A DNA stretch of 64,000 nt, from assembly GCA_032372955.1 (NCBI GenBank), contig GCA_032372955.1_4725.1. One strand, 5' to 3'. Shown piece by piece: positions 7,972 through 63,040 of the stretch. Below the pieces are notes generated by a model. The model was not told the origin of the DNA, searched no databases, and worked only from the letters and a program-made list of their open reading frames with translations. Made by a program: the position numbers and the translations under genes. Every line of letters begins with the position of its first letter. Within the stretch, counting starts at the first letter, position 1. Origin of the DNA: Escherichia coli (GTDB lineage Bacteria > Pseudomonadota > Gammaproteobacteria > Enterobacterales > Enterobacteriaceae).

Positions 7972-7998
7972 AGCCCGCCCTTCGGGGTGGGCTTTATG
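7972..7998 (+). terminator. rho-independent-type hairpin (UUCG loop) followed by TTATGCTGTC
   Basis: agcccgccc-ttcg-gggtgggct, then ttatgctgtc. It lies 16 nt after the stop of gene 4570-7956. Confidence 0.7.
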
Positions 7999-8044
7999 CT
8001 GTCGACCATCATGTGATATCTTATCTTTCAAACAGGAATCTGCG

Positions 8045-8428
8045 ATGACACGTGAAGCAAAATTTCTTTCACTCGCACTTAACGGTGCGCAGCAACAGAC
8101 ATGCTTGGTAGCGGCGTGCCCGCGACATTCAGTACCCGGTATGTATATTTGCCGTATTAACCCACATACCGCACACGAAACCGTCGTGCAGATTCCTGTT
8201 GCGGCACTACCGGAAGGTACCATCAAACCAATCATCCAAGGATTGCCGTTAGAAGCGCTATACGCTGTTTTAAACAACGAAATAGAAACATTAATGGAAA
8301 CGTCCAATGAAACAGATAAAACGCGTCTAGGGCTTGTTAGAGAGCTTCTACATAGCAGTCTGATTCATTATACCGGATATCGACAACAAGGAGGTGAGGA
8401 AATTAGCGAGGACGACACCGATGCCTAA
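8045..8428 (+). CDS. hypothetical protein
   Basis: 127-aa ORF with AGGAA 6 nt upstream. It is the first gene of a five-gene translationally coupled block. Confidence 0.55.
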   Translation: MTREAKFLSLALNGAQQQTCLVAACPRHSVPGMYICRINPHTAHETVVQIPVAALPEGTIKPIIQGLPLEALYAVLNNEIETLMETSNETDKTRLGLVRELLHSSLIHYTGYRQQGGEEISEDDTDA

Positions 8429-9986
8429 ACTTGATCGAAAAATCAATGACGTATACGCGACGGTAACACGTCCGGTTGCAATCGCGGTGTTACGGCAGAT
8501 CAGCGAGCTTTGCGGATGGGATTATAATCGGGAGAACATTCTTTTTCGAGGGGAAGCGCTTCACGCTAAAATGAGCGCTGCGAACGAGCAACCGCCGCAA
8601 GTTGTTGATCAGGATGTAAAAGGGCCTGCTGACGGGTTTATCCAAATTGAGCTTAATATTGTCCCTGAAGAACAGGCGTCTATGTACGATACCGTTTACA
8701 AACGAAACAGTCTTCCCGTATTCGAAGACCGTAACCTTGGCGTATCGTTAGTACCTGTTTACAGTACAATGGTTGCGACCATGCAGATCACCAAACGGTT
8801 CGAGGATCAGGTCACCGCCGAACGTTGGTGGTACGACATGAAACGTTTGCTGACAAGCCAGCACGTCGCTGCCTTTCTTAGCGCTGAATACAGCTATGCG
8901 ATCCCAACACAGTTTCTCATGCTGTTAAAAGTTATCCACACACACCGAGAAGCAATAGCGGGTTACGGGGATAAGTTCAGCGAATACCTTAGAGACGGGT
9001 TCGACAACCGTGCAACCACCATGACGACAGTTGCCGGTGACGGTAAGAGCGTTAAATTGGTTATCAGGGAAATGCAAGAAGAGATCTCTGGCCAATTTGA
9101 TTTCACCGACGCACCAAAACCCGAGAAGAATGAGAACAGTTCTTCGTACAACGCAACCTTCTCTTACCGTTACACGTACGACACACCAACACACATCGTA
9201 GCACGGTATCCTGTTCAAGTACACCAACAGATACTCCCCGAAGAGTACCTTTACAAACCGAGCCTCTCGGTGCGTGATAAATCCCGTGCGCGTCGTGGTG
9301 GTATGGTGGTGCAGTATCAGGACATTCTTCGTGATTCGTTCTTGCCGGAGCAGGGTGCGTCGATTCAAGCGTATCGGTATCCTGATCTGGATGAATGGCT
9401 ACCGCCATCGAGCGTGGAAACCGAGCTTCCATCATGTACGCTTTTCACCGCACTGCTTGCTATCGATCCCGAACAACCTAACCTGTTGGTGACGTTGGAC
9501 TCGTTAGCCGAAGAAGGTGAATTCCATCCCGATCTTGTTCGGTGGTTCCGCGAGTACCCGGAATGGTCAAAATGCCATTACCAATCTCCTTTTTTCCTTG
9601 AGGTTTGGAAGGGTAAATACCGCTACGCAAGAGACGCGTGGACATTAACCGACGTTGGCGATCTTGAAGCGAAAGATCCGTTAGACTTACGGAGTGATTA
9701 CCACGTTCGTCTGGCGATACTGTTAGATTTAAGTCAGTTACAGGTTGAAACACTTGAAGCGTTGTGTTGTTATCCCAATCTGGTGGATGAACTGTTTGCG
9801 GTATTAGGTTTAGATAAAAAGTACTGGCCTAAGAAGAACAGTCGGGGATGCTATACGCTAATCGGGCTTATCGAAGCCATCAAACGTATCCCAACAACCG
9901 CTTCGTGGTTCAAACATCGTAGTTTATTCGTGCCGAGAATTCTTGTCGGTACCATCGTAGGAGTGAAACGCTATGGCGCTCGCTAA
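8421..9986 (+). CDS. hypothetical protein (likely structural; coupled block)
   Basis: I chose ATG 8421 as the start; it overlaps the upstream stop by 8 nt. The track start is 8394. Long ORF with no recognisable catalytic motifs. Confidence 0.6.
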   Translation: MPKLDRKINDVYATVTRPVAIAVLRQISELCGWDYNRENILFRGEALHAKMSAANEQPPQVVDQDVKGPADGFIQIELNIVPEEQASMYDTVYKRNSLPVFEDRNLGVSLVPVYSTMVATMQITKRFEDQVTAERWWYDMKRLLTSQHVAAFLSAEYSYAIPTQFLMLLKVIHTHREAIAGYGDKFSEYLRDGFDNRATTMTTVAGDGKSVKLVIREMQEEISGQFDFTDAPKPEKNENSSSYNATFSYRYTYDTPTHIVARYPVQVHQQILPEEYLYKPSLSVRDKSRARRGGMVVQYQDILRDSFLPEQGASIQAYRYPDLDEWLPPSSVETELPSCTLFTALLAIDPEQPNLLVTLDSLAEEGEFHPDLVRWFREYPEWSKCHYQSPFFLEVWKGKYRYARDAWTLTDVGDLEAKDPLDLRSDYHVRLAILLDLSQLQVETLEALCCYPNLVDELFAVLGLDKKYWPKKNSRGCYTLIGLIEAIKRIPTTASWFKHRSLFVPRILVGTIVGVKRYGAR

Positions 9987-11289
9987 GAAGCCCGCGAAAC
10001 CCATCATCAACCCCCAACAACCCGCGAAGGCTCGCGACGATGTTTATCGTTCTGCGGTGGTGGATGAGCAATACAATAGTCAAATCGGGTTAGTGAATTA
10101 CGCATCCGGTTATTCCGTAGAATGTGATTATTACGAACAGATTCTCGGTCGCGATGATGAACAAAGCAGTTTTCAAGCTAACCGTGATATCGCTGAACAG
10201 CAGTACCGTCGCATCAGACATTACCCTATCAAGTTAATGTCGTCATTGACGCCGTCGTACGACAACGGTACCGCACGTTTTCAATCCGAGGGTACGTGTA
10301 TACTTCCGGCGGTATCGGTTCCTCTTTTAGGTAACATGCTGTTAATCTCCGGTCTCGATCATCGTATCGCGGTGTACACAATCACCCGAATCACGCCGAA
10401 GAACATCAGCTTAGCACCGGCTTACGAATGCGATATTTCCTTCCAACGTATTCTTGACGAAAAACAGCTTATCGAACTGGAAGCGAAAATCGTTGAAGAT
10501 ACGCTATACGACCAAGACCAGTTAAAGCACGGAAAACATCCCGTAATGGCAACGGAGAAATACAATCGTAAGTATGATTATCTCCGTCGTGCACTGGGAC
10601 TTTGTCACGCGTATTACCACGAATTTTACAGCCGTGAACTCAACACACTGCTTGTTCCTGGTCAGGATGCGGCAACCTACGATCCCTGGTGTGTTAACGC
10701 GTTTACGAAATTATGGTCGTCGCTTGAAGGAAAGCCATCATGGAACTTCGGACGTCTTAACGTAGACGACAGCCAGGAAGCGAATGCGATTTCTGTCTTT
10801 GAATGGGTCATGGACGGACGTCGGGAAGACGAAGCACGGTTGACGGTGAAATTCACACTGTTGTCAACAAAGCGTTTCTATCAATACCCGGCTGCAGGTG
10901 GGATTCGTTTTAGCGGGGCGCGGTTCTGTATGTGGCCTGCGACCACGTCGCTCGGTGATGACGTCGGTAAAGAGTTAGCCGTGCCTGAAAACACACCACC
11001 GACAAACCCGTTGGTGACCAACCTTACATCGATGGAGTATGATGGCGTTCCGTTGTTTCCATCGGTAGCGGACGATCCGTACTATGTTTTCACAGAGGCT
11101 TTCTATCGCAACCAAGCCCCGATGACGATCATTGAGAGTATGGTGCGTGATATGGTCGATGAGAAAGCAATCAGCCATCCAGCACTAAAACAGATGGTTG
11201 ATGCAATACCGTTGCTTTCTCCGCTAGATCGTTATTATTTCACACCGTTCGTTATTATGCTGTTACGAGCAGGAGCTATTGAACCATGA
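9973..11289 (+). CDS. hypothetical protein (coupled block)
   Basis: 438-aa ORF with AGGAG 9 nt upstream. It overlaps the previous gene by 14 nt. Confidence 0.65.
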   Translation: MALAKKPAKPIINPQQPAKARDDVYRSAVVDEQYNSQIGLVNYASGYSVECDYYEQILGRDDEQSSFQANRDIAEQQYRRIRHYPIKLMSSLTPSYDNGTARFQSEGTCILPAVSVPLLGNMLLISGLDHRIAVYTITRITPKNISLAPAYECDISFQRILDEKQLIELEAKIVEDTLYDQDQLKHGKHPVMATEKYNRKYDYLRRALGLCHAYYHEFYSRELNTLLVPGQDAATYDPWCVNAFTKLWSSLEGKPSWNFGRLNVDDSQEANAISVFEWVMDGRREDEARLTVKFTLLSTKRFYQYPAAGGIRFSGARFCMWPATTSLGDDVGKELAVPENTPPTNPLVTNLTSMEYDGVPLFPSVADDPYYVFTEAFYRNQAPMTIIESMVRDMVDEKAISHPALKQMVDAIPLLSPLDRYYFTPFVIMLLRAGAIEP

Positions 11290-11891
11290 GTCTACAACAC
11301 GTTAAAGATACCCCAACCAAACGTCTATTTGAACGTAAATTCGAATTCTGGATTCCCCGTAAATTCATGGTGGATAACTACACCAACGAGGTCAGCGGCG
11401 TCTACTCTTCAGGGGTTGCAGAAATCGACGATATGGCCATGAACGAAGAGGTGCCCGCACAGCTCACCGTACCGCAGGCTGCTGAAAAACATTCTCGTGG
11501 TGTCCCTATGCGTATTGCAAATCCTGACGTGAACGCCATGAAGATGTTCATGCTTCTTCTGGAACACACGGAATACGTTAAATACAATCTCGAAAACGAT
11601 CCTAACGCGCGCGTACCGTCTCTCGAAGCCAGTCGTATCCTCGAAGAGTTCATGGGTGGTCTGTGGAACGTTGCACGCGGTCGCATTAAAGACCCAACCG
11701 AAATGAGCGGATTATCTTCACGTTTACGTGAAATCGGTCAGCGTCGTAAAATCGGCATCAACCGCGCACGTCGCGGTGGTCTCAATGCAGGCCCAACCGT
11801 TGAAGAGCAACTGCAGGCGGTTCGTCACAGTGAATTCCGTGGTACGAAGATCGAAGAATTCATCATCCAACAACAACAACGGGGTCGTTAA
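11286..11891 (+). CDS. hypothetical protein (coupled block)
   Basis: ATGA start/stop overlap with the upstream gene. 201 aa. Confidence 0.6.
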   Translation: MSLQHVKDTPTKRLFERKFEFWIPRKFMVDNYTNEVSGVYSSGVAEIDDMAMNEEVPAQLTVPQAAEKHSRGVPMRIANPDVNAMKMFMLLLEHTEYVKYNLENDPNARVPSLEASRILEEFMGGLWNVARGRIKDPTEMSGLSSRLREIGQRRKIGINRARRGGLNAGPTVEEQLQAVRHSEFRGTKIEEFIIQQQQRGR

Positions 11892-11893
11892 AC

Positions 11894-13261
11894 ATGGATT
11901 ACAAACAGACGCCGTTAGGACGGTATATCGGTACATTTGCGCAGGAAGCAGTTGCTGTTGCGTATAAAGTCACCGCGGAATTAATCACGCCGTCAATGAC
12001 GGTGTCTGTTCCTTTAGTGACTCAAGTCCACACGTATCGAGACTATGAACGTAACGCAGGAGATGAACTTTATATCTCTGTAAAGTTCCCGCCTGGCAGT
12101 TACGGAAAATACATCTTACCGTACCAACAACAACTTAAAATGCGTATCATCGTGCAGGCATACAGCCTGATGCGTGGACAACGCCAAACCGTAGACGATG
12201 CCGCACAAGCTTACGTCTACCGAGCGGTTTGTTTAACAACCGTAGACAGTCGTATGTCTGCTACCGACGAACGTACCGCAACAGATTCTTCGAAGAAAGA
12301 CTACGAACAAATGGTCGATCTTCAATTTCAACTGTTCGATCCTGTTCTTGAAAGCTTCATGCAATCAGAAACCGGTGAAAACTATACTGGGTCGAAAGTG
12401 TTGGATGTGTTGCGCCTTGAATTCAGCAAGATACTTTCTGCGGTTGAAGCCGACACCGGATTCAAAATGCAGGGCGTGGACATTGTTGCGCCGAATAACG
12501 ACAATCTGTTCAAGTTGCTTATTCTTCCGCACGGTACCAACGCAATGGATCTCGTAGACAAAATCCAGAACCAGGTCGGTATTTATTCAGCGGACGTAGG
12601 TTGTTATTATCAATCCCCGTATCTGTATATTTATCCTCTCTACGACGAAACCCGTTTCTCTGACGGTCGTCGCACGGCTATCTTTTACAACTACCCTGCC
12701 GATATGTTTCCAGGCATGGACAAGACCTGGATCAATCGTGACAAATACGTGGAAATTGCATGTACGAGAGGGGCGTCGGTAAGCGACATCAATAACGCGG
12801 CTTCGTTGTTAGGTAATGCGGGTGGGCGTTTTGTTTCGGCAAGTCAGATGAGTCAGGGAATGACATTATCAAAAGGAGGCGATACGATAATCAGTCGTAC
12901 TGTAAACGTTAGCGAGTACGTAACTGAAGAACGTAGCGATAACGTGAAGGTGGCGAAAGGGATGGGACGCGTAACCGATAACCGATGGCGTGAATTAAGT
13001 AATACTGCTGGATTACGCGGCAGGACAATGCAGTTGGTGTGGGAATACGCAAACATGGATATGTTGTATCCCGGCATGCCTGCTAAAGTTGTGTGGATGC
13101 AGGATAACAATCTCTGCGAAGCATACGGGGTTATCATGCGTACCGATTGTGCTGTTACGATGGCAGGTTCTTCTGTACGTGAACCACAGTGGACATGCCA
13201 TGGTACGGTCACGTTATGGCTTGCACCAGAAAAAGACAACACCGTTCGTCCAACCGTTTAA
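11894..13261 (+). CDS. hypothetical protein (coupled block)
   Basis: 455-aa ORF starting 2 nt after the previous stop. It is followed by the conserved hairpin at 13266-13297. Confidence 0.65.
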   Translation: MDYKQTPLGRYIGTFAQEAVAVAYKVTAELITPSMTVSVPLVTQVHTYRDYERNAGDELYISVKFPPGSYGKYILPYQQQLKMRIIVQAYSLMRGQRQTVDDAAQAYVYRAVCLTTVDSRMSATDERTATDSSKKDYEQMVDLQFQLFDPVLESFMQSETGENYTGSKVLDVLRLEFSKILSAVEADTGFKMQGVDIVAPNNDNLFKLLILPHGTNAMDLVDKIQNQVGIYSADVGCYYQSPYLYIYPLYDETRFSDGRRTAIFYNYPADMFPGMDKTWINRDKYVEIACTRGASVSDINNAASLLGNAGGRFVSASQMSQGMTLSKGGDTIISRTVNVSEYVTEERSDNVKVAKGMGRVTDNRWRELSNTAGLRGRTMQLVWEYANMDMLYPGMPAKVVWMQDNNLCEAYGVIMRTDCAVTMAGSSVREPQWTCHGTVTLWLAPEKDNTVRPTV

Positions 13262-13265
13262 TATT

Positions 13266-13297
13266 CCCTCTCCCTTCCCTTACGGGTTGGGAGAGGG
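13266..13297. terminator. conserved Y/R hairpin, copy 2
   Basis: ccctctcccttccc-ttac-gggttgggagaggg, then cttatgctgtc. Confidence 0.7.
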
Positions 13298-13331
13298 CTT
13301 ATGCTGTCTTATTTCGCATTACTCCAGTTTA

Positions 13332-13356
13332 TTTCGCGACTACATTACCTAGGTGA
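13332..13356 (+). promoter_or_regulatory. conserved 25-nt promoter-like motif, copy A
   Basis: TTTCGCGACTACATTACCTAGGTGA, located 35 nt after hairpin copy 2 and ~200 nt upstream of gene 13559. Confidence 0.55.
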
Positions 13357-13558
13357 TAAGAGCGGTTACTGTTGTCGCTGTAAATTTCTCTTAATAATCG
13401 AGGATACAGTCATGGCCTTATTAATACGCGACCCGTCAGCATACGAAAACACGCGTTATAACCATAACCAGTTCGGCAATAATTTCTAACAAAGAACGAT
13501 CAATCTATGCATTGATTCTTCTATCCGCAATCCACCTAACATAGAAAGGTAAAATACG

Positions 13559-14128
13559 ATGTTTAATCCAGAAATCATGATTCTTGATCCTTGGTACCTC
13601 AACAAACTTCCAGGAATCAAAATGCCAGGCGATCCTCACGCATTCGATTTGATGGTCGTTGCCGAAGTTACCAGCAATACGGTTAACACCATCGACGATG
13701 ATGAGGTTCCTGTTGAAGAGGTGTTCTCTGTTACGACGACATTACTGGAAAGTCGAGAGCTGACCGAAAACGGCAGCGCCGATGAAATCATTCCTATCGA
13801 TGGTGAGATGGAGATCATGTTAACACAGGTCGAGTTGCACCATCGTGTCGCACCAACAAAAGACACGCCTTATGACAATGAACCTGCAGAACAACCTGAT
13901 GAAAACGGTCGAGTGAAACTTGCTGACATCGACGACGATGCTCTTGAAGATATCGACGAAAACGAAGAAACGAACTTCTACCAAGCTGAAGCGAAAGAAG
14001 CGTTTGATAAAGCGGTTCAGCATGATCGACGTATCACCGAGAAGATGATCCAACAACAACTTATCGGTAAACGTCTTAAGCTCGAATTCGCAAGCGGGGT
14101 GCTTACTACCTGGTCACTCATCGTCTAA
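13559..14128 (+). CDS. highly acidic hypothetical protein
   Basis: 189 aa with AAAGG upstream. It is very D/E-rich (runs such as IDDDEVPVEE and DIDDDALEDIDENEE). It is the first gene downstream of the promoter-like motif at 13332-13356. Confidence 0.6.
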   Translation: MFNPEIMILDPWYLNKLPGIKMPGDPHAFDLMVVAEVTSNTVNTIDDDEVPVEEVFSVTTTLLESRELTENGSADEIIPIDGEMEIMLTQVELHHRVAPTKDTPYDNEPAEQPDENGRVKLADIDDDALEDIDENEETNFYQAEAKEAFDKAVQHDRRITEKMIQQQLIGKRLKLEFASGVLTTWSLIV

Positions 14129-14197
14129 AACCGAAACAACGTTTTCATTTCCAATCACATACTCAACAATCTAAATCCAATTAAGAGGACAACATTT

Positions 14198-14599
14198 ATG
14201 TTTAATATTCTTAGTGTACCGCGTTCCCCTGTCAGTTCTTACTTCGGTATTATGACCAGTAAAGAACACAACGTGGAATATACTGTTATCGCTAAAGATC
14301 CATCACCGATCAACGTAACGTTTGCTGAAGGTACTACCGAACTCGTTCCGTTAAATGGTGAATTCAGTAAACCTGTTAACGGCGTCTACGAACTTATCAC
14401 TCGCGATCCGAATAACAACGCGACCTACCGTGTGGTGTGTGCGTTCAACAATAACAAATTGGTTATTGTTGCGGATAGCCGTGGGTTATCGTGGATGGCT
14501 GAGGAAGGCACACATCGTTACTACGAAGAATGCTTACGAACCGCAGGCATCTACGATCTGGTAATGGACGCCCGTGCTAAAAACGACCGGATGTTTTAA
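14198..14599 (+). CDS. hypothetical protein
   Basis: 133-aa ORF with AGAGGA RBS. Confidence 0.6.
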   Translation: MFNILSVPRSPVSSYFGIMTSKEHNVEYTVIAKDPSPINVTFAEGTTELVPLNGEFSKPVNGVYELITRDPNNNATYRVVCAFNNNKLVIVADSRGLSWMAEEGTHRYYEECLRTAGIYDLVMDARAKNDRMF

Positions 14600-14605
14600 A
14601 TTATC

Positions 14606-14932
14606 ATGATTACTCGAGAAATCATTTACGACGCTATTATCGAATGCCGCCATCGCGTCATGCGTGGAACGGTGTATAACTACCACTTAAACAACATTAT
14701 CAGTGAATGTACGGCGGTGATGACTAGCGCGCTGGGTAAACCTAGCGCTATCGCACTCTATCCAAACATCACTGAACAGGAGCAAATCAATATCGAAAAC
14801 CAACGTCGAGTGAATCGCCAATACGATGTAACAGCCATGCACGCATGGCTTATCGTTGCAGCGAAACTCAACACGCTTCTCACTGAGAACGGCTGGAAAT
14901 TTTCACCTAATGAATTCATGACAATAAGTTAA
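14606..14932 (+). CDS. hypothetical protein
   Basis: 108-aa ORF, 6 nt after the previous stop. It is followed by the bidirectional hairpin at 14949-14980. Confidence 0.55.
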   Translation: MITREIIYDAIIECRHRVMRGTVYNYHLNNIISECTAVMTSALGKPSAIALYPNITEQEQINIENQRRVNRQYDVTAMHAWLIVAAKLNTLLTENGWKFSPNEFMTIS

Positions 14933-14948
14933 TCAAAGCGGTCATAAC

Positions 14949-15002
14949 CCCTCCTCCTTCCCTTACGGGTTGGAGGAGGGAACCGCACAATCTTTTTTTT
15001 TT
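14949..15002. terminator. conserved Y/R hairpin, copy 3, plus a T-run (bidirectional, between convergent genes)
   Basis: ccctcctccttccc-ttac-gggttggaggaggg. A T-run lies at 14992-15002. TTATG is on the minus-strand side (14943-14947). Confidence 0.7.
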
Positions 15003-15006
15003 GCGT

Positions 15007-16617
15007 TTAAAATTCTAAATCAAATTGTAATTCATTACTCGGTGCTGCGTTTTCATCGAACTTGTTCCACGGACCTTTACCTCCCTCGGAGACAGGTTGT
15101 CCGCCAACCTTGCGGCAATATACTGCTTTCTTACCGTAATCATCAGGAAGCATCCCGATGGTTTGGAATGGCATCGCGAAATGTTTGTCTTCAGGTTTCG
15201 TTGAACCGTTATCCGGTTGACGGTCTTTCCCTAATGCAAAGACCTGCCAGCTTTGACGTTTGCCGGGTTCCTTAACGATATCAACAATCACTTCAAGGTC
15301 AATCTCGCGGTCAATCCCTTTACAACCATCCCAGTAACTTAAACCTGCGACCTGGTCAACGAACTCTTCATCGTTACCATCACGTGCACGCATCTTCGCA
15401 TCGGATGACAGCTGGTGTACGGTCATGCCTAAAATACGTTTAACGCTGCAGAGGTTACGGACTTTGTTAAAGAGTTCTTGGAGCCATGCGCCGGTCGGCC
15501 CATTTCTATCCAGCCCTTCCGATGAGAACATTTTCAGATAGTCAATGAACAACGCCATGACTTCATAACCCATGCGTTCGAAATGGTCGATGAGATTAGC
15601 GAGTTGTTTATAACTCATCCCATCAACACGACGCATACAAACAGAGAAACCCGCATCATTGAACACCTTCAACACATAACGTGATGCCTCGCGAGGGTCA
15701 ATCTTACGAATATCGACATATTCGCCCGTTTCCTGTTCTCGCATGTTCTTGTATATTTGAAGCGTGTTTTCTTCCACTTCGTTTTCTGTCGACAAATGAA
15801 TCAGTAATGCTTTCTTTGCTCGCTCCGGAAAAAAGAAATGGGGTTTATTGTACAGTGCCAGATGCGTGAACAGTTTTAACAACACACCTGACTTGTTCCG
15901 GTGCTGCATCGCACCAATCAGTCCTAAGGTACCGCGACGTAAAACACCGACCGACCCCAACATTTTATTAAAACCTTGCCAGCCGGTTACAAACCCACCT
16001 TCAGGACTGTTACGTTCCATCGCTTTGACGAACATACGTTCAACTTTCTCGATATCGTCTTCACTGTCAGCGATAAAGCCGTCAATCATACACGACATCT
16101 CTTCGGGATTTTCGGTATCCATTTCGATACTGTCTAGCGATAATTTCAAATTCGCCATCGCATCGAAAAATTCTTTATCCCCAAGTCGCCCGTTACTGAT
16201 ATCCATGTACGTGTTTCTAAAGGTTTCGAAAACACGACGACGGGTAATCAGATTACGTAATTCGTTGTAATAGAGTGAACAGACCTTACTGATATGAGCG
16301 TCGTCTTCGATATCGTACAGTCCGTCGGCGAGAATCTCGTAAAGATTGCTTTGCTCAAGGCAATCTAAACGTATCCTTTGTAACAACTGTTGTTTATCGA
16401 AAGGTTCCGATAATGGTTGTTCCAACATCCAATGAATGGTATTCATCAGGTTGTTGAAAACCTCTCTATCTACGTCTGTAGCGAGATGGTTTTTCGGGGG
16501 TTCGACTTTATCTAAGACGGATTTAACATGTTCGATCGTACTGGGATCGGGATGGTTCAATTGTGCATTACGAAACAGTAACGTAATAATCTTAATGGCT
16601 ATCTGTTTTGGGTCCAT
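15007..16617 (-). CDS. DnaB-family / RecA-fold replicative helicase-like ATPase
   Basis: Motifs read by eye: GAMQHRNKSG (Walker A-like), MALFIDYL (Walker B-like) and VHQLSSDAKMR (DnaB H3/H4-like). I set the start at ATG 16617 (AAGGA upstream). The track's GTG at 16701 has no RBS and would overlap the divergent gene. Confidence 0.5.
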   Translation of the reverse strand: MDPKQIAIKIITLLFRNAQLNHPDPSTIEHVKSVLDKVEPPKNHLATDVDREVFNNLMNTIHWMLEQPLSEPFDKQQLLQRIRLDCLEQSNLYEILADGLYDIEDDAHISKVCSLYYNELRNLITRRRVFETFRNTYMDISNGRLGDKEFFDAMANLKLSLDSIEMDTENPEEMSCMIDGFIADSEDDIEKVERMFVKAMERNSPEGGFVTGWQGFNKMLGSVGVLRRGTLGLIGAMQHRNKSGVLLKLFTHLALYNKPHFFFPERAKKALLIHLSTENEVEENTLQIYKNMREQETGEYVDIRKIDPREASRYVLKVFNDAGFSVCMRRVDGMSYKQLANLIDHFERMGYEVMALFIDYLKMFSSEGLDRNGPTGAWLQELFNKVRNLCSVKRILGMTVHQLSSDAKMRARDGNDEEFVDQVAGLSYWDGCKGIDREIDLEVIVDIVKEPGKRQSWQVFALGKDRQPDNGSTKPEDKHFAMPFQTIGMLPDDYGKKAVYCRKVGGQPVSEGGKGPWNKFDENAAPSNELQFDLEF

Positions 16618-16656
16618 CGACTCAATCCTTTCGATACTTGCAAAGAGGTAATCATA

Positions 16657-17277
16657 ATGAAGGAACTCCGATATCTCGTCGTTCCGAATTGGGTAGAACA
16701 CGCGATTATTCGAAATGCGCGTGATGACTTACAGGTGTTATTAGATCCTAAAAGTCTTTTCGGCATACTATCGCCCAATGATGTAGGTTTTTATTTCGCA
16801 GCCCAGAACGTGCCTTTCTTCATCACGAAAGAACACGAACAAGCGAACCCTGCGGTTCATCTTAACAACCTGCTTGGTGGTATGTTTGCGTATCACTATG
16901 ACGAAACAGGTTTGCCGCCAGAGAAGAATGTTGATGTGCTGTGTGAGTACATCAATCGTTATGACAATGGTTATTACCATTTACTGACGAGCTATCCGCG
17001 TGATATTGAACGTCGTTTGGCGGATCCAACTTACAGCCCAGACAAACGTCCGTTGAGTGTTCGGGTGCGTTATGTTAATGAGGATGTGATCGCGATTGTT
17101 GTCGATTGTCTTCCTTTATTGGCAGAAGAGTTATTGAGCGATCGTATTGCTGATAACTACAGCGCCGTTATTGAACACCTGCGAATTAATATGAGTCTTG
17201 CGGAAGTTGCGCAATTGCCGCTGTTCCGTTCATATTGCACCAATCGTTCCATCCATTATCGCCTGCGTCGTTTGTGA
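16657..17277 (+). CDS. hypothetical protein
   Basis: 206-aa ORF with AGAGG 8 nt upstream. It is divergent from the helicase-like gene. Confidence 0.6.
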   Translation: MKELRYLVVPNWVEHAIIRNARDDLQVLLDPKSLFGILSPNDVGFYFAAQNVPFFITKEHEQANPAVHLNNLLGGMFAYHYDETGLPPEKNVDVLCEYINRYDNGYYHLLTSYPRDIERRLADPTYSPDKRPLSVRVRYVNEDVIAIVVDCLPLLAEELLSDRIADNYSAVIEHLRINMSLAEVAQLPLFRSYCTNRSIHYRLRRL

Positions 17278-19649: not shown

Positions 19650-19748
19650 ACTACCGTAGCTGCTTCGTTGGACGATATTCTTGACGACAACGTTGCGGAT
19701 GGTTTCATTGCACCGGACATTCATCCGGCACCGTGATACATAAGTCAG

Positions 19749-19778
19749 CCTCCCTCAGCCCGTAAGGGTTGGGGGAGG
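19749..19778. terminator. conserved Y/R hairpin, copy 4 (fully paired variant), after the capsid gene
   Basis: cctccctcagccc-gtaa-gggttgggggagg, then tttctatgccgt. Confidence 0.7.
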
Positions 19779-19811
19779 TTTCTATGCCGTTTACGTTGTG
19801 AATAGAAAAAA

Positions 19812-26185: not shown

Positions 26186-26205
26186 TAAATTAAATAGCGC
26201 ATAGC

Positions 26206-26264
26206 CCTTCTCCCCTTCCCTCATCGGGTTGGGGAGAAGGTTAACTATGTGTTATTTTTTTTTT
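26206..26264. terminator. conserved Y/R hairpin, copy 5, plus a T10 run (between convergent genes)
   Basis: ccttctccccttccc-tcatc-gggttggggagaagg. CTATG is present on both flanks (26200-26204 minus strand, 26245-26249 plus strand). A T-run lies at 26255-26264. Confidence 0.7.
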
Positions 26265-34394: not shown

Positions 34395-35300
34395 ATGGAG
34401 TACAGTGAAATCCTAGGGTTAGAATCGAAAGAAATCCTCTTTCGGCTGATTCGAAAGCATAGCGATTTCGATGCTCGAGGCGTAACGCTGGATAAACTGG
34501 TTATCGGTGAGGCTTCTGAAAGCACAGGGTACAAGCGTAACAGCAAGTTAACCGTGCATCCCCAGCCGGGTTCAGGGCTGGTGAACTCTGTCGACATCTA
34601 TTATAACCGCATCGATCTTGGTAAACTGGGTACTTGGCCTGGCGGACAGCACCACTGGCCCGTCGAGATCGAAACCTTAGATGCGCTAACCAAGGTCTCT
34701 GAGATCCTACCTGTCTTAGCATCGACGTACGGTATCCTTCTCAACAAAACCGAGATTGTCGACGCAGATCTGGATAAGTCCAAGTCACCGATACAGGTTG
34801 TGATAACACCTAAACCCGGTAACCAAGTATGGGTTGGTCAGTTACTTGTCGAGTTAACTTCAGGACATAATGACCTCAACAACCTCGTTCGCAACAATAT
34901 GTTGGCTGGGTTGAATTATATCATCGATCGAGATAGCAGTAAACTCCCGGGCGCTATTGTTTCGTACAACTGGTTCGTATCTGCTGGTGTTCTGGCGTCA
35001 CTTACCGATGGTTATACGTTAACCTCAGGTGATACGCAATCGGAGGCACTAATCGCAGAAATGAACATGCTGCAATTGGGTCTCTCTGAAGAGATCGACG
35101 GCCTTATGGTCAACGATCGCTGGGTATTGTCAGCAATACCTGGACCACTCAACTTGCAGAATGCGAGAGTAATAGCCGATCCAGAGCAATTCAAAACACT
35201 ACCGTTTGGCGTGCGTACGGATGTTAGTAAAGCCGTCGTACTTCAACTTAGTGTGATGAATACGCTCATCGATGGTTATCTAACGCTATATGTAGCATAA
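34395..35300 (+). CDS. paralog family B protein
   Basis: Family motifs: YYNRIDLGKLG, VWVGQLLVELTS and a C-terminal LIDGYLTLYVA. It is followed by the hairpin at 35310-35341. Confidence 0.55.
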   Translation: MEYSEILGLESKEILFRLIRKHSDFDARGVTLDKLVIGEASESTGYKRNSKLTVHPQPGSGLVNSVDIYYNRIDLGKLGTWPGGQHHWPVEIETLDALTKVSEILPVLASTYGILLNKTEIVDADLDKSKSPIQVVITPKPGNQVWVGQLLVELTSGHNDLNNLVRNNMLAGLNYIIDRDSSKLPGAIVSYNWFVSAGVLASLTDGYTLTSGDTQSEALIAEMNMLQLGLSEEIDGLMVNDRWVLSAIPGPLNLQNARVIADPEQFKTLPFGVRTDVSKAVVLQLSVMNTLIDGYLTLYVA

Positions 35301-35309
35301 CAGCATATC

Positions 35310-35341
35310 CCCTCCTCCTTCCCTGTTGGGTTGGAGGAGGG
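35310..35341. terminator. conserved Y/R hairpin, copy 6 (between convergent genes)
   Basis: ccctcctccttccc-tgtt-gggttggaggaggg, then ttatg. Confidence 0.7.
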
Positions 35342-35351
35342 TTATGTTTGG

Positions 35352-36632
35352 TTATTTGTTTTTCTGACTGGAATCGATCAATTCGAGCTTGTGTACTGTC
35401 TGCAACGTCGCATGCGTTTCCAACCAGACCTGGTGAAGATAAGGCGTATCGTTAAGCCGCTTAACGCGCGTATGTTTGTACAACGTATTTTCAAACAACA
35501 TGTTCTTACGAAGTCCCCAGCGCGAGTGAAGTACCCATAACGGTTTTTCATAGGTCTGCACGTAAGCTGGTAACTCGCCGAGATCGGCTCGAATCAGTCC
35601 TTCCGGTTTCTTACCTAAGAAATACTGTCCTGGTACACCACTTCGTGGTAAAGGTTCTTGTGTAACCTGAATCGATGTTGCTTTGATGTACACCCAGAAA
35701 CTGCAAGGATGCGTCACCCACGCTTTCAATGCTTTATCAGACAATAAACGATTGGCAACAATGTCGGACTGTGGGTCTTCTTCGTTCAACAGAATACCAA
35801 GAGATGTTAGATCAAGGTATTTGCGGGAACGGAAGTATCTTTCATAGAGAAACATGTTAATGCAGTTTATTTTCGCTGTCGTGTCGCTAACGATCGTGTA
35901 ACAATCGTCAAGAAGATGTAAATATCCCCCGAACACCAGCGCGACGGTTTCATCTTCGGCGACCTTGCGCGGTAGCCGTAAATACATCTCGTCCTTATAC
36001 GGCAAGAGCTTCGTGGAATCAGCGATCATCTCTTCTGTGATAGCATGGATTTCCAAACTCCCGATACGGCTAAAATCAATCATACCGATATCGTTTTCTT
36101 GGCCACGCTGTGCTGTCTTGAACCCACCTTGGATATAGACACCAACGTCTTTACCGTAAACGTGAGGATGGACATAACCGCCTACGGTGAACAAGCAGTG
36201 TTTGCCGATATTTTCGTAATTCGTATTCGCTTTCGTCAACAGGATATCAGTGCGTTCCGACTCGGGAATCGCGTTGCTTGGATGATAGCCACTATTACCG
36301 ACTTTAGGGAGAAAGCCTACCGTAATAGCGTCATGACAATAAAGCTTGTGGGTTTTAATCGACAGCTCGCCAGGCTGTCCACGAAGGTTAGTATGCGCAT
36401 CCGATTTCGCTTTCAACCACGCATTGAGTGTATCACTGCTGTTTTGAAGCTCGGATTGAAATGTGTACAGATCAATAACTTGTTGCTGGTCAGCATAGCT
36501 TTCATGGACCTGGATCTTGAGTTTTTGATACGTTGAGAACAACGTACTCAGGACACTTTCACCCGCCTCAAGCGCTGTCCAGGCCGTGCCAGAACCCACG
36601 GGTAATCCGTAAGTTTTTACCAATGTATACAT
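35352..36632 (-). CDS. hypothetical protein (426 aa)
   Basis: AAGGGGG 8 nt upstream of the ATG. It is a lone minus-strand gene inside the + strand structural block, bounded by a hairpin and a divergent intergenic region. Confidence 0.6.
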   Translation of the reverse strand: MYTLVKTYGLPVGSGTAWTALEAGESVLSTLFSTYQKLKIQVHESYADQQQVIDLYTFQSELQNSSDTLNAWLKAKSDAHTNLRGQPGELSIKTHKLYCHDAITVGFLPKVGNSGYHPSNAIPESERTDILLTKANTNYENIGKHCLFTVGGYVHPHVYGKDVGVYIQGGFKTAQRGQENDIGMIDFSRIGSLEIHAITEEMIADSTKLLPYKDEMYLRLPRKVAEDETVALVFGGYLHLLDDCYTIVSDTTAKINCINMFLYERYFRSRKYLDLTSLGILLNEEDPQSDIVANRLLSDKALKAWVTHPCSFWVYIKATSIQVTQEPLPRSGVPGQYFLGKKPEGLIRADLGELPAYVQTYEKPLWVLHSRWGLRKNMLFENTLYKHTRVKRLNDTPYLHQVWLETHATLQTVHKLELIDSSQKNK

Positions 36633-38890: not shown

Positions 38891-38896
38891 CGGATG

Positions 38897-38932
38897 GGTG
38901 GGTTCTACCCACCTTTCCTTCTTTTTATTTTT
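38897..38932 (+). terminator. rho-independent terminator after tail fibre gene 36737-38890
   Basis: ggtgggt-tct-acccacc, followed by the T-rich tttccttctttttattttt. Confidence 0.7.
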
Positions 38933-38947
38933 CGATAGGATGTGAAA

Positions 38948-45388: not shown

Positions 45389-45451
45389 AACCCTGCCGTA
45401 AACCGTCATAAAACGCTCCAGAACGAACGGAACGCATAAAGACGTATAAGA

Positions 45452-45483
45452 CCCCTCCTCACCCAATAACGGATGAGGAGGGG
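45452..45483. terminator. conserved Y/R hairpin, copy 7 (divergent variant with a larger loop)
   Basis: cccctcctca...tgaggagggg, a 10-bp perfect stem. It lies between the endolysin and the convergent gene 45683-46225. Confidence 0.55.
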
Positions 45484-45682
45484 CTTAACAGGTGTTCGTG
45501 TTTATTCAGGTTGGTCTGGGTCCCTGGCCGCTTGAGGAGATCCACAACCCTTTCAACACCACGCTTCATACGAAGCGCTCAATGAGAAAGATAAGCGTGC
45601 AACCACGCAGATTGTTACAACCAAATTGTAGAAGAGCAATAGCCGAGCTGTACAAAACCCATACTATTGCTCTTTATGCTTA

Positions 45683-47276: not shown

Positions 47277-47308
47277 CCTTCCTCCTTCCCTGTTGGGTTG
47301 GAGGAAGG
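47277..47308. terminator. conserved Y/R hairpin, copy 8
   Basis: ccttcctccttccc-tgtt-gggttggaggaagg, then tttatg. It marks the end of the structural block, just before the ORF-free region. Confidence 0.7.
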
Positions 47309-47399
47309 TTTATGTTTGTGATTATTCTTCTCTTTTATAATTTCTAATGATAAGATTAAGTACCTGGAGTAAAAGTTTACAGATGTTGTAAATGTATTT

Positions 47400-51837: not shown

Positions 51838-51852
51838 TAAATAAACCATAAA

Positions 51853-51888
51853 CCTTCCTTCCCCGGCCTTTACGGCTAGGGAAGGAGG
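51853..51888. terminator. conserved Y/R hairpin, copy 9 (variant, between convergent genes)
   Basis: ccttccttccccggcc-tttac-ggctagggaaggagg. TTTATG is on the minus-strand flank (51847-51852), and a T-run lies at 51903-51909. Confidence 0.6.
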
Positions 51889-51907
51889 TTGTATAGCATT
51901 TCTTTTT

Positions 51908-58872: not shown

Positions 58873-58889
58873 CGTTTAACGGCATATTT

Positions 58890-58921
58890 CATCCTCCCTT
58901 CCCTTACGGGTTGGGAGGATG
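58890..58921. terminator. conserved Y/R hairpin, copy 10 (between convergent genes)
   Basis: catcctcccttccc-ttac-gggttgggaggatg, then gtttttatgcgc. Confidence 0.7.
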
Positions 58922-58925
58922 GTTT

Positions 58926-59234
58926 TTATGCGCTTTCTACTTCAACGATAAAACGACGGATTTCACCATCAGAGGCTTTCAATGTTTGCGTGTAGGTGAA
59001 TTTTGCGATCCCTGACGGCAGCAATACATGATCGGTATTTTCTGTATCGTGTTGGAAATCTTTATTGGAATCAAGATCGATACTGTTTAAGGCCTTCCGT
59101 ATACGTGGCATCAGTGGATAAAAATCACCGAGATCGCGTAACCCTGGAATGGGTTCTAATACGATTTTGGTTTCAGTGCCAACACCATTCATGACAGGCG
59201 TTGTTGAAGTAAATTCAACGTTCAAATTGCTCAT
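58926..59234 (-). CDS. hypothetical protein
   Basis: The ORF is open to 59339. I prefer ATG 59234 (AAAGG ~10 nt upstream, MSNLNVEF...). The start is uncertain. Confidence 0.45.
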   Translation of the reverse strand: MSNLNVEFTSTTPVMNGVGTETKIVLEPIPGLRDLGDFYPLMPRIRKALNSIDLDSNKDFQHDTENTDHVLLPSGIAKFTYTQTLKASDGEIRRFIVEVESA

Positions 59235-59467: not shown

Positions 59468-59540
59468 CTCCCTCCTTTGTGTTATATTCACACCATTTTC
59501 CTATTTTGTTAATTCTTATTCCTGATATTTAACAGCATAA

Positions 59541-59564
59541 AAGCCTGCCCCGAAGGACAGGCTT
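59541..59564 (-). terminator. rho-independent-type hairpin (UUCG loop on the minus strand) followed by TTATGCTGT
   Basis: The minus strand reads aagcctgtcc-ttcg-gggcaggctt, then ttatgctgtt. It lies 5 nt after the stop of gene 59570-60391. Confidence 0.65.
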
Positions 59565-59569
59565 GATGA

Positions 59570-60492: not shown

Positions 60493-60517
60493 TTTTCACG
60501 GCTATATTACTTAAGTG
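60493..60517 (+). promoter_or_regulatory. conserved 25-nt promoter-like motif, copy D
   Basis: TTTCACGGCTATATTACTTAAGTGA, located 24 nt upstream of ORF 60542. Confidence 0.55.
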
Positions 60518-60541
60518 AAGTAAGCCAGCGAGATTTCAATC

Positions 60542-61198: not shown

Positions 61199-61299
61199 TT
61201 GATCCAAGGTCCTCTGATATCAGAGGACCTTGCTTTATATCGTTTTTTCTTTTGTTGTTTTTAACCGATCTTCAAGATGCGTATGTAGGGGAGATGACA

Positions 61300-62252: not shown

Positions 62253-62266
62253 GAAGGATCCTTTCG

Positions 62267-62968
62267 ATGAACCCGTTAAAACGCGCAGTGAGTATTATTC
62301 TTAATTTTATCCCAAACTACCAACGTACCGAAAGATACCGTCATTGGTATAATTTCGTTTACCAGCCGGTGGTAGAAGGACATATTGCTAATCTCGAGAA
62401 AGTGGGAGGCGATAAGAAATACTTGACGGTTACGATTCCGGATATTATCCGCAAGATATACGAAGACCAGGAAGAATTTCCTAACGTCGCTGATATTCTG
62501 TTGTTTATACAAGCGTATCGCTTTCGTCTTACACCACCGAAATCTGTAGTACGTCCGTGGTTTGGAACAAAAACAGATGGTGTGGAACAAGCGATGAAAC
62601 AACGTTTTAACGACCAGTTCGCTCGTCATACTCCTCGCGCGTTACGGGTGATGATGGAAATCCTCAATCGTCCTGATATATGCGTCATTCCGATGATCAT
62701 TGAATCGGAACTGTTTTATTTGTTCGATAAACGATTCGAAGTTACCATCATTGAATACGGTGATGGCCTTTTGGTATTCAGTTACGTTGATTGCGATGGC
62801 GTTGGTGATGTTCGTTACGTTGTTCTGGACGTAGAAGACCGCTCGTCAACGATGACGGCAGCGCAGTTACGTCGATTCGTTGCTTACCTCGAATGGCGCG
62901 ACGAGGATGACGAAGTTCGCCGTAAGAACCATGTTCGCCAGAAGTACGCGAGATTATCTGCATCTTAA
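62267..62968 (+). CDS. hypothetical protein
   Basis: 233 aa with AAGGA RBS. It is followed by the terminator at 62976-63026. Confidence 0.6.
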   Translation: MNPLKRAVSIILNFIPNYQRTERYRHWYNFVYQPVVEGHIANLEKVGGDKKYLTVTIPDIIRKIYEDQEEFPNVADILLFIQAYRFRLTPPKSVVRPWFGTKTDGVEQAMKQRFNDQFARHTPRALRVMMEILNRPDICVIPMIIESELFYLFDKRFEVTIIEYGDGLLVFSYVDCDGVGDVRYVVLDVEDRSSTMTAAQLRRFVAYLEWRDEDDEVRRKNHVRQKYARLSAS

Positions 62969-62975
62969 ACCGACG

Positions 62976-63026
62976 GTCACGGCTCTCCTTCATTGGAGAG
63001 CCTGTGACTATCGTTTTTTTTTTTTT
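62976..63026 (+). terminator. rho-independent terminator with a T13 run
   Basis: gtcacggctctcc-ttcatt-ggagagcc(t)gtgac, then tatcg and T13 (63014-63026). Confidence 0.8.
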
Positions 63027-63040
63027 GCTTGACGGCATAA

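Follow-up and report, generated by a model that had tools for sequence, protein, structure and literature searches.

The hairpins followed by TTATG that recur after genes in the window, the whole 64,000-nucleotide stretch of DNA analysed here, are already-described stop signals of the phiKZ type, neither a new promoter module nor hidden mini-genes. They are very probably factor-independent transcription terminators, of a type conserved in the phiKZ-like nucleus-forming jumbo phages (Chimalliviridae). The closest match of the window is Escherichia phage Goslar (98.4%), which is one of these nucleus-forming, phiKZ-like jumbo phages; the capsid proteins of this phage (Goslarvirus, host E. coli) and of phiKZ are only ~25% identical. 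The published RNA-seq paper on Goslar reports no promoter or terminator motifs; in the depositors' record of that genome, several of these hairpins are annotated as putative terminators.

Results

TATG is enriched after hairpins entered by a gene

Hairpins were sought by an unbiased scan of both strands (ViennaRNA, dG <= -15 kcal/mol). The scored set consisted of the strong intergenic hairpins on the strand with a gene running into the hairpin (the incoming strand, n = 26), and a match was a TATG starting 0-8 nt past the stem. TATG tails were found in 17 of the 26, against an intergenic background of 4.3% for a 12-nt window (binomial p = 1.4e-17), and TATG is the commonest tetranucleotide in the tails (17), followed by TTAT (12). 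Composition-keeping shuffles of each 12-nt tail (20,000) yielded a mean of 1.99 matches and a maximum of 9, so that the enrichment is not a product of U-rich composition. An earlier sequence-only reading had argued that a U-tract alone leaves an invariant ATG unexplained. All 15 tail sites listed by that reading, on both strands, read as it described, and TATG does lie on both flanks at the convergent junctions 26206, 35310, 58890 and 63041. Its statement that hairpins are almost always followed by TTATG holds as an enrichment but is too strong as worded, since nine incoming-strand hairpins lack TATG (38892, 61200, 14949+, 45449+, 47420, 49991, 51854+, whose tail reads TATAG, and 62981 on both strands). 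Similarly, the copy at 17289 is indeed upstream of the capsid ATG (135 nt), but is not free-standing, as a weak hairpin (17259-17285) lies 3-5 nt before it. The hairpin-plus-TTATG sites are confirmed as real.

Where TATG is placed depends on the side from which transcription enters the hairpin. On strands without an incoming gene TATG is present in 1 of 7 cases, versus 17 of 26 on incoming strands (Fisher p = 0.03); hairpins within genes have no TATG tail (0/6), and the same test on 50 kb of E. coli K-12 returns the background level (2/76). By junction, tail TATGs are found at 11 of 16 convergent sites, where no gene comes after, and at 6 of 10 tandem ones, and are thus independent of a gene downstream. 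The exact 9-mer TTATGCYGT has 5 copies for 0.98 expected, four of which are hairpin tails while one (11255) is inside a gene. After TATG, the 17 tails have C in 10, Y in 13, G in 8 and T in 13 at successive positions; the G after TTAT is invariant in all 17 scored copies by construction of the test.

Anatomy of the elements

In most cases the hairpin starts 1-30 nt past the stop codon, and combines a pyrimidine-rich (C/U) 5' arm with a purine-rich (G/A) 3' arm, while a short tail, (U)UAUG-C-Y-G-U, stands in place of the bacterial U-tract (Table 1). Stems comprise 12 pairs, with compensatory double changes at 7 of the 12 (14 copies) and a conserved 2x2 internal mismatch (UU/UU or AA/AA), and members of the family fold at -21 to -30 kcal/mol (z = -3.3 to -5.9). 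The reverse complement keeps the Y/R polarity of the arms, so that a single element can halt transcription arriving from either side. Oriented either way, the same 32-nt core is found at 2025 (-) and 47277 (+), and at 35310 (+) and 63041 (-); core orientation varies, and the tail is on the 3' side of the incoming genes. The asymmetry expected of terminators, with the transcribed strand folding more stably, is only a trend (10/13, p = 0.09).

Table 1. Hairpins and tails by position in the window
Element	Span	Strand	Hairpin	Tail	Remarks
Terminator after gp056	2025..2067	+	2025-2056 (-21 kcal/mol)	TTTATGGCGTT	Stem begins 10 nt past gp056 stop codon
Terminator after gp053	7965..8003	+	7972-7993, UUCG loop (-20.9 kcal/mol, z = -3.3)	TTATGCTGTC	Upstream CAUAA pairs with UUAUG, giving a longer stem; putative terminator in Goslar record
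Terminator after gp048	13266..13308	+	13266-13297 (-25 kcal/mol)	CTTATGCTGTC	ATG of tail begins 62-aa 'gp047' of Goslar annotation
Convergent terminator, gp044 (+) / helicase gp043 (-)	14937..15002		14949-14980	- GTTATGACC (TTATG 14947-14943)	+ side: no TATG, T10 run 14993-15002
Weak hairpin spanning gp042 stop codon	17259..17298	+	17259-17285 (-14.2 kcal/mol, z = -1.8)	AAAGTTATGCGGC	
Major-capsid-gene terminator	19747..19791	+	19747-19780 (-30 kcal/mol)	TCTATGCCGTT	
Bidirectional terminator, gp037 (+) / gp036 (-)	26194..26264		26206-26240	CTATG 26245-26249 (+) and 26204-26200 (-)	T10 run 26255-26264
Bidirectional terminator, gp031 (+) / gp030 (-)	35296..35353		35310-35341 (-26.9 kcal/mol, z = -5.7)	+ TTATG 35342-35346; - GATATGCTGTTATGC	Putative terminator in Goslar annotation
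Terminator after gp029	38892..38935	+		TTCTTTTTATTTTT	Plain U-tract, no TATG
Convergent junction, gp024/gp023	45435..45487	-	45447-45487 (-31 kcal/mol)	TATG 8 nt past stem (45438-45435)	Putative terminator in Goslar
Long-loop hairpin	45628..45682	+	21-nt loop (-15 kcal/mol)	TTATGCTTA (45674-)	
Terminator after gp022	47277..47320	+	47277-47308	TTTATGTTTGTG	
Convergent terminator, gp014 (+) / gp013 (-)	51842..51907		51854-51888	- GGTTTATGG (51852-51847); + TTGTATAGCATTTCTTTTT	Putative terminator in Goslar
Bidirectional terminator, gp008 (+) / gp007 (-)	58878..58934		58890-58921	+ TTATGCGC (58926-); - AAATATGCCGT	
Terminator after gp005	59529..59564	-	59541-59564, UUCG loop	TTATGCTGTT (59540-59531)	Putative terminator in Goslar
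Terminator after gp004	61200..61255	+	61200-61237	(TT)TATATCGTTTTTTC	TTATA variant (TTTATATCG), not TATG
Double hairpin, convergent gp001 (+) / gp187 (-)	62981..63084		62981-63002 and 63041-63072	- TTATGCCGTC (63040-63031); + AATATG (63073-63078), both flanking 63041-63072	T13 run 63014-63026

Comparison with known terminators

The tail consensus of the window, (T)TATG-C-Y-G-T, equals the tail of the phiKZ intrinsic-terminator motif, 5'-BCCYCCCCHWWDGGGRRGGBYTTATKYYGT-3' (Putzeys et al. 2024, Microlife, PMC10914365). Common to both are a C/Y-rich 5' arm, a short loop and a G/R-rich 3' arm before (Y)TTAT-G-Y-Y-G-T, a location right after genes and on both flanks where genes converge, and occurrence in a nucleus-forming jumbo phage equipped with multisubunit RNA polymerases of its own. 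The two differ in phage genus and host, in the longer stems of the present phage (12 pairs, with the conserved 2x2 mismatch), and in that phiKZ permits T (or A) for the G after TTAT. At 21 motif terminators of phiKZ, the mapped RNAs end within this tail or shortly past it, between -1 and +6 nt relative to the T of TAT[G/T/A], and its capsid terminator reads GGGCTTTATGTT followed by GT. The 'motif A' terminators of 201phi2-1 are a close known counterpart; in a reporter trap, 6 of 8 terminators of that phage, including that of the capsid gene, equalled or surpassed the lambda T0 control (PMC11512511).

The module, with both flanks at convergent junctions, is also present in a phiKZ-species genome, Xanthomonas Xoo-sp14, Erwinia Special G and Ralstonia RP12, and the same kind of module lies downstream of the capsid genes of phiKZ, Xoo-sp14, Special G and RP12. 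In the Salmonella Seoulvirus relative sampled the tail is absent (0/31) and plain U-tracts are found instead. Because of these U-tracts and of the nine incoming-strand hairpins without TATG, the tail is one solution, not a requirement; among those nine, the gp029 terminator, with its plain U-tract, shows it to be non-obligatory.

Resemblance to bacterial Rho-independent terminators extends to a GC-rich hairpin directly after the gene, a weak A/U-rich hybrid adjoining the stem, a probable release ~7-9 nt past the stem, and bidirectional versions with complementary flanks. The difference is that a sequence-specific UAUGCYGU tail here replaces the U-tract. A consensus terminator scan of positions 1-20000 recovered no member of the family, its total of 16 being below the shuffle expectation of 22.

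A possible termination mechanism

By analogy with phiKZ, TATG probably belongs to the terminator and would be transcribed into the 3' terminus of the RNA that is released, Goslar-like polymerases presumably stopping at the tail as in phiKZ. UUAU next to the stem would form a weak RNA:DNA hybrid, with release in or just past UAUG(YY), often before a G. Such a release point would fall at a pyrimidine/G step, and steps of this kind are known to make multisubunit polymerases pause. At two-way sites, CAUAA before the stem and UUAUG after it are one tail read on both strands, and may pair, thereby extending the stem. Pausing combined with a weak hybrid is not a full explanation of the invariance of T-A-T-G in 17 copies.

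Alternative explanations

The sequence-only reading had proposed, as one of two possibilities, terminator-promoter modules built on a TATG core of phiKZ late promoters. Such a core does exist: experiments on phiKZ define it as TATG, starting transcription at the G (+1) and necessary though not sufficient (PMC4666361), and it is bound in a pocket of GP123, the beta-like subunit of the non-virion RNA polymerase (nvRNAP) (PMC12809450). The window encodes a GP123 homologue, gp039 (21462-23258). Of the 14 side chains that the paper assigns to the pocket, 6 are identical in gp039 (S144, F151, K158, H331, S334, Q466) and two more remain aromatic (H185Y, Y406F); the stacking residues are conserved. 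TATG is moreover the second most depleted tetranucleotide in the genes of this phage (z = -8.6), a strong avoidance that E. coli does not share (z = -1.2), and is therefore evidently a signal here too. The polymerase could then initiate on the G of the TATG beside the hairpin and drive the next gene, terminator and late promoter standing back to back; at the tandem junctions 2025, 7972 and 59541 the tail holds the sole TATG before the next gene and may act as a promoter, and phiKZ promoters often lie 10-40 nt past terminators (T064 and P075 are 10 nt apart). Yet this arrangement is unlikely. Although the tetranucleotide is identical and the polymerase family the same, 11 of the 17 tails have no co-oriented gene ahead, and the tail TATGs coincide, in phiKZ, with RNA 3' ends at or past the G. 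Mapped phiKZ late start sites are placed before genes without a preceding hairpin, as in the model promoter p119L, and with AT-rich DNA upstream (0.67), whereas the 9 nt before the tail TATG are G-rich stem (AT 0.39-0.47). None of 119 phiKZ start sites (P008-P126) falls at the first TATG past a hairpin: P049, P075, P054 and P016 lie 5-25 nt beyond it, transcription in the nearest cases begins at a second TATG 10-20 nt farther along, and the capsid terminator T057 has no recorded start site. In the window, a separate TATATTAC-type promoter motif lies past two tandem terminators. The 'terminator' half of the proposal thus stands, while promoter function as the reason for the tail TATG is not supported, 11 of 16 convergent sites bearing it with no co-oriented gene to drive.

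Termination could instead be tied to the phage enzyme, a refinement of the terminator explanation that we regard as possible but doubtful: a GP123-type pocket would catch the non-template TATG, the polymerase would pause and the hairpin would release the RNA. Terminator tail and promoter core are the same invariant 4-mer, the tail is conserved across phages whose hosts have 38-58% GC, sense-strand TATG is avoided in genes of the window and of 4 of the 5 relatives sampled, the pocket stacking residues are kept in gp039, and the phage nucleus, where transcription occurs, presumably lacks host termination factors. However, 201phi2-1 terminators function in uninfected cells with the host polymerase, in the transcribing complex the GP123 pocket has been described as incomplete (PMC12809450), the phiKZ motif accepts T or A for the G, and the Seoulvirus sample avoids TATG equally (z = -6.6) with terminators that lack it. 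It is very unlikely that the hairpins act solely in protecting or processing RNA 3' ends, read-through being followed by trimming back to the hairpin. Very stable hairpins do block 3' exonucleases, ends a few nt past the stem are also what trimming would produce, and in phiKZ the two processes cannot be told apart by nanopore 3' ends; but the 201phi2-1 counterparts do terminate transcription in the reporter traps, and a protective hairpin has no need of a conserved downstream TATGCYGT. Termination and 3'-end protection are not mutually exclusive functions.

Hairpin-masked ribosome-binding sites, the other possibility raised by the sequence-only reading, in which the GGAGG of the 3' arm and the ATG would provide regulated starts for tiny U-rich peptides, are highly improbable. 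The reported GGAGG-to-ATG spacing of 4-8 nt is real, and gp047 is annotated from one such ATG; the GGAGG, however, is simply the purine-rich 3' arm, buried in stems of -17 to -30 kcal/mol. ORF lengths range from 5 to 86 codons and differ in a close relative (Goslar, L005) at 3 of 12 alignable sites (5 to 10, 9 to 23 and 20 to 9 codons), most ORFs run antisense into the convergent or next gene, and gp047 shows non-synonymous changes relative to Goslar and contains a promoter-like motif. In phiKZ, the motif allows T for G, tails T067, T052 and T074 lack an ATG altogether, and the terminated RNAs stop at the ATG or within ~3 nt of it. Hardly credible, finally, is a mobile or recombining repeat (REP/MITE-like) carrying TTATG by chance: near-identical 32-nt cores do recur, but tail orientation is not fixed relative to the core and follows gene direction, copies are located only just after stop codons, unrelated stems (7972, 59541, 19747) bear the same tail, and so do different stems in unrelated phages.

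With the elements read as phiKZ-type terminators, what this work adds is the depletion of TATG in genes, the spread of the motif among relatives, and the TATATTAC-type promoter motif past two terminators.

Phage identity and gene map

Bases 17000-22000 of the window align over their full length with Escherichia phage vB_EcoM_Goslar, in reverse orientation and at 98.4% identity, and the guess from the sequence alone that this is a phiKZ-type phage is borne out by a Goslar relative. Goslar (Chimalliviridae) is a jumbo phage that resembles phiKZ and forms a phage nucleus; two phage-encoded multisubunit RNA polymerases transcribe its genes. Placing Goslar genes on the window at 82-100% identity yields a map of 59 genes, mostly on the + strand and mostly virion-structural. 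One of them, gp039, aligns with phiKZ GP123, the beta-like subunit of the non-virion RNA polymerase (nvRNAP; 24% identity), and with its homologues, which together with the Goslar identity places the phage among chimalliviruses with non-canonical multisubunit RNA polymerases. Searches for tRNAs and Rfam families across the window returned no match. The 849 nt between gp022 and gp021 carry no annotated gene, tRNA or Rfam match; this stretch holds a UUCG-loop hairpin lacking a TATG tail and two lone TATGs, and small genes or a non-coding RNA might be encoded there. Coordinates of individual features are collected in the table.

Features of the window discussed in the text
Feature	Position	Strand	Remark
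Promoter-like motif	13340-13356	+	intergenic, upstream of + gene, ~40 nt past tandem terminator
Promoter-like motif	19820-19836	+	intergenic, upstream of + gene, ~40 nt past tandem terminator
Promoter-like motif	47999-48015, 60502-60518	+	intergenic, upstream of the + genes gp021 and gp004
Goslar gp047	13301-13489	+	62-aa annotated gene whose start codon is the ATG in a terminator tail
gp039	21462-23258	+	GP123 homologue
Stretch without annotated gene	47249-48097		between gp022 and gp021
UUCG-loop hairpin without TATG tail	47420-47443		within the preceding stretch
T runs (T10-T13)	14993-15002, 26255-26264, 63014-63026		convergent junctions
Tail TTATGCCGTCAAGCAAAAA	63031-63049	-	63041 terminator; cf. 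Xoo-sp14 ~14167-14186

TATG follows hairpins at gene ends

Hairpins were scanned on both strands with ViennaRNA at dG <= -15 kcal/mol, a cut-off tightened because looser criteria, tried first, yielded many chance stems inside genes; strands were then classed by the gene running into the hairpin (incoming strand) and by a co-oriented following gene. TATG begins 0-8 nt past the stem in 17 of the 26 incoming-strand hairpins, against a background of 4.3% of 12-nt intergenic windows (binomial p = 1.4e-17). Shuffling the 12-nt tails while keeping their U-richness produced a mean of 2.0 matches and a maximum of 9 in 20,000 trials, and TATG is the commonest tail 4-mer (17 occurrences), followed by TTAT (12). 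The tetranucleotide follows 1/7 hairpins on strands without an incoming gene, 0/6 hairpins within genes and 2/76 hairpins in 50 kb of E. coli K-12, the last being background level. Background, shuffles and controls thus show that the enrichment is real and not an effect of composition. The association noted in the sequence-only reading holds against shuffled flanks, and all the sites it listed read as described. Its wording that TTATG comes "almost always" overstated the case, TATG being absent after nine incoming-strand hairpins, and the copy at 17289 that it considered free-standing is in fact preceded by a weak hairpin.

The main family, aligned from 14 copies, takes the form CCCTCCTCC-UU/AA-CCC-loop-GGG-UU/AA-GGAGGAGGG, with compensatory double changes in 7 of 12 stem pairs, fold energies of -17 to -30 kcal/mol and, for folds of -21 to -30 kcal/mol, z-scores of -3.3 to -5.9. 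The 5' arm is C/pyrimidine-rich and the 3' arm G/purine-rich on both strands alike, because reverse complementation preserves this polarity. One 32-nt core is used in two orientations (hairpin 2025 read on the - strand is the same as 47277 read on the +, and 35310 on the + the same as 63041 on the -, numbers being start coordinates); whichever the orientation, the tail lies 3' relative to the incoming gene. The same tail is attached to the unrelated UUCG-loop stems 7972 and 59541. The four positions after TATG are C in 10/17 tails, Y in 13/17, G in 8/17 and T in 13/17, hence (T)TATG-C-Y-G-T. The hairpins lie downstream of genes in the sense direction, starting 1-32 nt past a stop codon in 20 of 26 cases, and they are two-sided between convergent genes, with TATG on both flanks at four of the six convergent junctions that have a family hairpin. 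Several were annotated as putative terminators by the depositors of the Goslar record. An asymmetry in hairpin stability between strands (10/13, p = 0.09) is a trend only and is not counted as evidence.

Two further observations concern the tails. Runs of T10-T13, the only homopolymers of at least 9 nt in the window, lie 10-14 nt past hairpins at three convergent junctions, and similar T runs come after the TATG tail in phiKZ, Xanthomonas phage Xoo-sp14, Ralstonia phage RP12 and Erwinia phage Special G; such runs might serve as an additional termination element or belong to the 3' UTR of the transcript on the other strand. The tail TTATGCCGTCAAGCAAAAA of the 63041 terminator is identical over 19 nt to that of the capsid-gene terminator of Xoo-sp14, the capsid proteins of the two phages being only 34% identical; the match may be due to chance or may reflect a conserved element of greater length.

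The hairpins match a published terminator motif

Mapping of phiKZ RNA ends by ONT-cappable-seq revealed 61 terminator regions, predicted to be intrinsic, that share 5'-BCCYCCCCHWWDGGGRRGGBYTTATKYYGT-3', described as a stem-loop followed by a 5'-TTAT-3' region (Putzeys et al. 2024, PMC10914365). The hairpin plus TTATG of the window is this motif: TATG begins 0-8 nt past the stem in 17/26 incoming-strand hairpins, and the tail consensus agrees with YTTATKYYGT. An identical motif was reported in 201phi2-1, where eight terminators were assayed by reporter trap in uninfected cells of Pseudomonas chlororaphis and six, including one just past the capsid gene, equalled or exceeded the lambda T0 control (PMC11512511). 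In the phiKZ-species genome fnug the module likewise follows the capsid gene and occupies both flanks at convergent junctions. For Goslar we found neither promoter nor terminator motifs in print, and the ChmC eCLIP paper contains no motif bearing on these hairpins.

Whereas a canonical bacterial intrinsic terminator has at least five U in the 8 nt past the stem, the window family has tails such as TTATGCTGTC, and a true U-tract occurs only at 38892. A standard consensus terminator scan of positions 1-20000 listed none of hairpins 2025, 7972, 13266, 14949 and 19747, missing the whole family because its tails are not T-rich. The bioRxiv supplement of Putzeys et al., from which we took start-site and 3'-end tables, gives the sequence from -60 to +40 around each 3' end; on a canonical PAK_P3 terminator, position 60 is the final U of the U-tract, which fixes the register. 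The 3' ends of 21 phiKZ motif terminators (T034-T076) fall between -1 and +6 nt relative to the T of TAT[G/T/A], most of them at +3 to +6, with T or A replacing G in 3 of the 21 tails; at the capsid terminator the end is ...GGGCUUUAUGUU|GU. In phiKZ, TATG therefore takes the position of a U-tract at the 3' end of the completed transcript. By analogy with these 3' ends and with the 201phi2-1 reporter trap, the best-supported view is that the window hairpins stop transcription and that their RNAs would end in the tail.

Alternative roles of the TATG tail

The sequence-only reading had offered two explanations, a terminator joined to a late promoter and a hairpin-masked Shine-Dalgarno (SD) sequence and ATG opening tiny reading frames. 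Its statement about promoters was correct: in phiKZ the late-promoter core is TATG, necessary though not sufficient, with the G at +1 (PMC4666361), and the four non-template bases of this core sit in a pocket of GP123 (PMC12809450). The tails share the core by definition, and at 2025, 7972 and 59541 no TATG other than that of the tail stands ahead of the next gene, so that the same word may serve there as both terminator tail and promoter. As a general account, a late promoter for the next gene is not supported, and only the terminator half of the proposed module stands: 11 of the 17 tails have no co-oriented downstream gene, and TATG is as common without such a gene (11/16, convergent junctions) as with one (6/10). 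In phiKZ, none of the 119 start sites P008-P126 lies at the TATG that comes first after a terminator hairpin; at P049 and P075 the start is a second TATG, 5-12 nt further, and P054 and P016 begin 20-25 nt further, the spacing from terminator to start being 10 nt for T064/P075 and 20 nt for T046/P054. Early or middle promoters often follow phiKZ tails within 30-40 nt (P017, P023, P028, P099). A terminator with a promoter behind it is thus a frequent arrangement, yet in phiKZ transcription does not begin at the TATG of the terminator itself. The model promoter p119L, moreover, has no hairpin; upstream AT-richness also separates promoters from tails, weak evidence that mostly reflects tails abutting G-rich stems. 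As for a small-gene start, the 4-8 nt spacing between GGAGG and ATG is right, but this GGAGG is the purine-rich 3' arm, held inaccessible in a very stable stem, and the frames (5-86 codons) are not conserved: three differ in length in a close relative, and most run antisense into a neighbouring gene. The G of ATG is not required by the phiKZ motif, and the RNAs released there stop no more than ~3 nt from the ATG. We therefore reject this reading. Its sole annotated case, gp047, shows non-synonymous differences from Goslar, contains a promoter-like motif and is probably not a gene.

That motif, (C/T)TA(C/T)ATTAC(C/T)TA(A/G)GTGA, is separate from the tails and occurs four times in the window against 0.55 expected. 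The core CTATATTAC is a match to early (virion-polymerase) promoters of phiKZ, and the phiKZ capsid terminator, too, is followed by ...GATCTATATTAC; judged from sequence, it is likely an early or middle promoter of Goslar-type phages.

A factor-independent account agrees best with the evidence on the tails: UUAU would form a weak hybrid, and RNA would be released in or after UAUG(YY), frequently before a G. Bacterial RNA polymerase has an elemental pause signal comprising G-10, Y-1 and G+1, and the pyrimidine/G step of the tail appears to resemble it. We think it improbable that the promoter core doubles as a terminator element, a GP123-type pocket capturing the non-template TATG of the tail during elongation. 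The same beta-lobe pocket of the non-virion RNA polymerase selects late start sites, and capture would explain the purging of TATG from the sense strand of genes; yet 201phi2-1 terminators function with the host polymerase, the pocket is "incomplete in the transcribing complex", T or A is tolerated at the G position of the motif, and the Salmonella Seoulvirus SPFM17 avoids TATG while its tails lack it.

TATG avoidance in genes and its spread among relatives

Depletion was assessed with 200-300 synonymous-codon shuffles within each gene. In the 57 complete genes of the window, sense-strand TATG is observed 154 times against 243 expected (z = -8.6), making it the second most depleted of 256 tetranucleotides; its antisense form CATA has z = -4.6. 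In 42 genes of E. coli K-12 TATG is not depleted (z = -1.2, rank 77). Four of the five other chimalliviruses sampled show the depletion (fnug/phiKZ -4.4, Xoo-sp14 -5.0, SPFM17 -6.6, Special G -4.2), and in RP12 it is weak (-1.8). The pocket of gp039 is identical to that of GP123 at the stacking residues F151 and H331 and at Q466, S144, K158 and S334; H185 and Y406 are replaced by other aromatics, and Y399 (to K), N186, K190, S330, N398 and S402 differ. Depletion in genes and the binding pocket both point to TATG as a signal in this phage.

A capsid-protein search of viral contigs gave only near-identical genomes, and relatives were obtained by tblastn against phage records and surveyed for tails in ~25-kb samples around the capsid gene. 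Hairpins with TATGCCG/TATGCTG are plain in Xoo-sp14 (58% GC), Special G and RP12, including capsid-gene terminators and two-sided sites. SPFM17 hairpins have ordinary U-tracts, with TATG on 0/31 hairpin strands in 25.6 kb, despite its depletion in genes. The tail is therefore widespread, not universal. Avoidance does not track use of the tail: the Seoulvirus avoids TATG without tails, and RP12 has tails with weak avoidance.

Discussion

The association between hairpins and TATG is confirmed and is accounted for by a motif already in the literature on phiKZ and 201phi2-1, so that at its core it is a rediscovery; as far as we found, only its occurrence in Goslar-type phages had not been described before. 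Goslar is a main E. coli model in phage-nucleus biology, and for phages of its type the motif provides a ready terminator map and casts doubt on at least one gene call, that of gp047, which is probably false. The remaining interest lies in a terminator tail identical to the promoter core and in family-wide avoidance of TATG. We found no link between tail and core in print, and the phiKZ and 201phi2-1 transcriptome papers do not contain the string "TATG".

How a 4-bp TATG can specify late promoters is a problem for the field. If the pocket did capture the tail, a polymerase-specific pause would allow hairpin termination without a U-tract, perhaps aiding recycling of the enzyme, and a single short word would then signal where late transcripts begin and where they end within the phage nucleus. 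The fixation of TATG in tails, its place among the most avoided words in chimallivirus genes and the conserved stacking residues of GP123 bear on promoter specification and together indicate that the transcription machinery throughout the family "sees" TATG.
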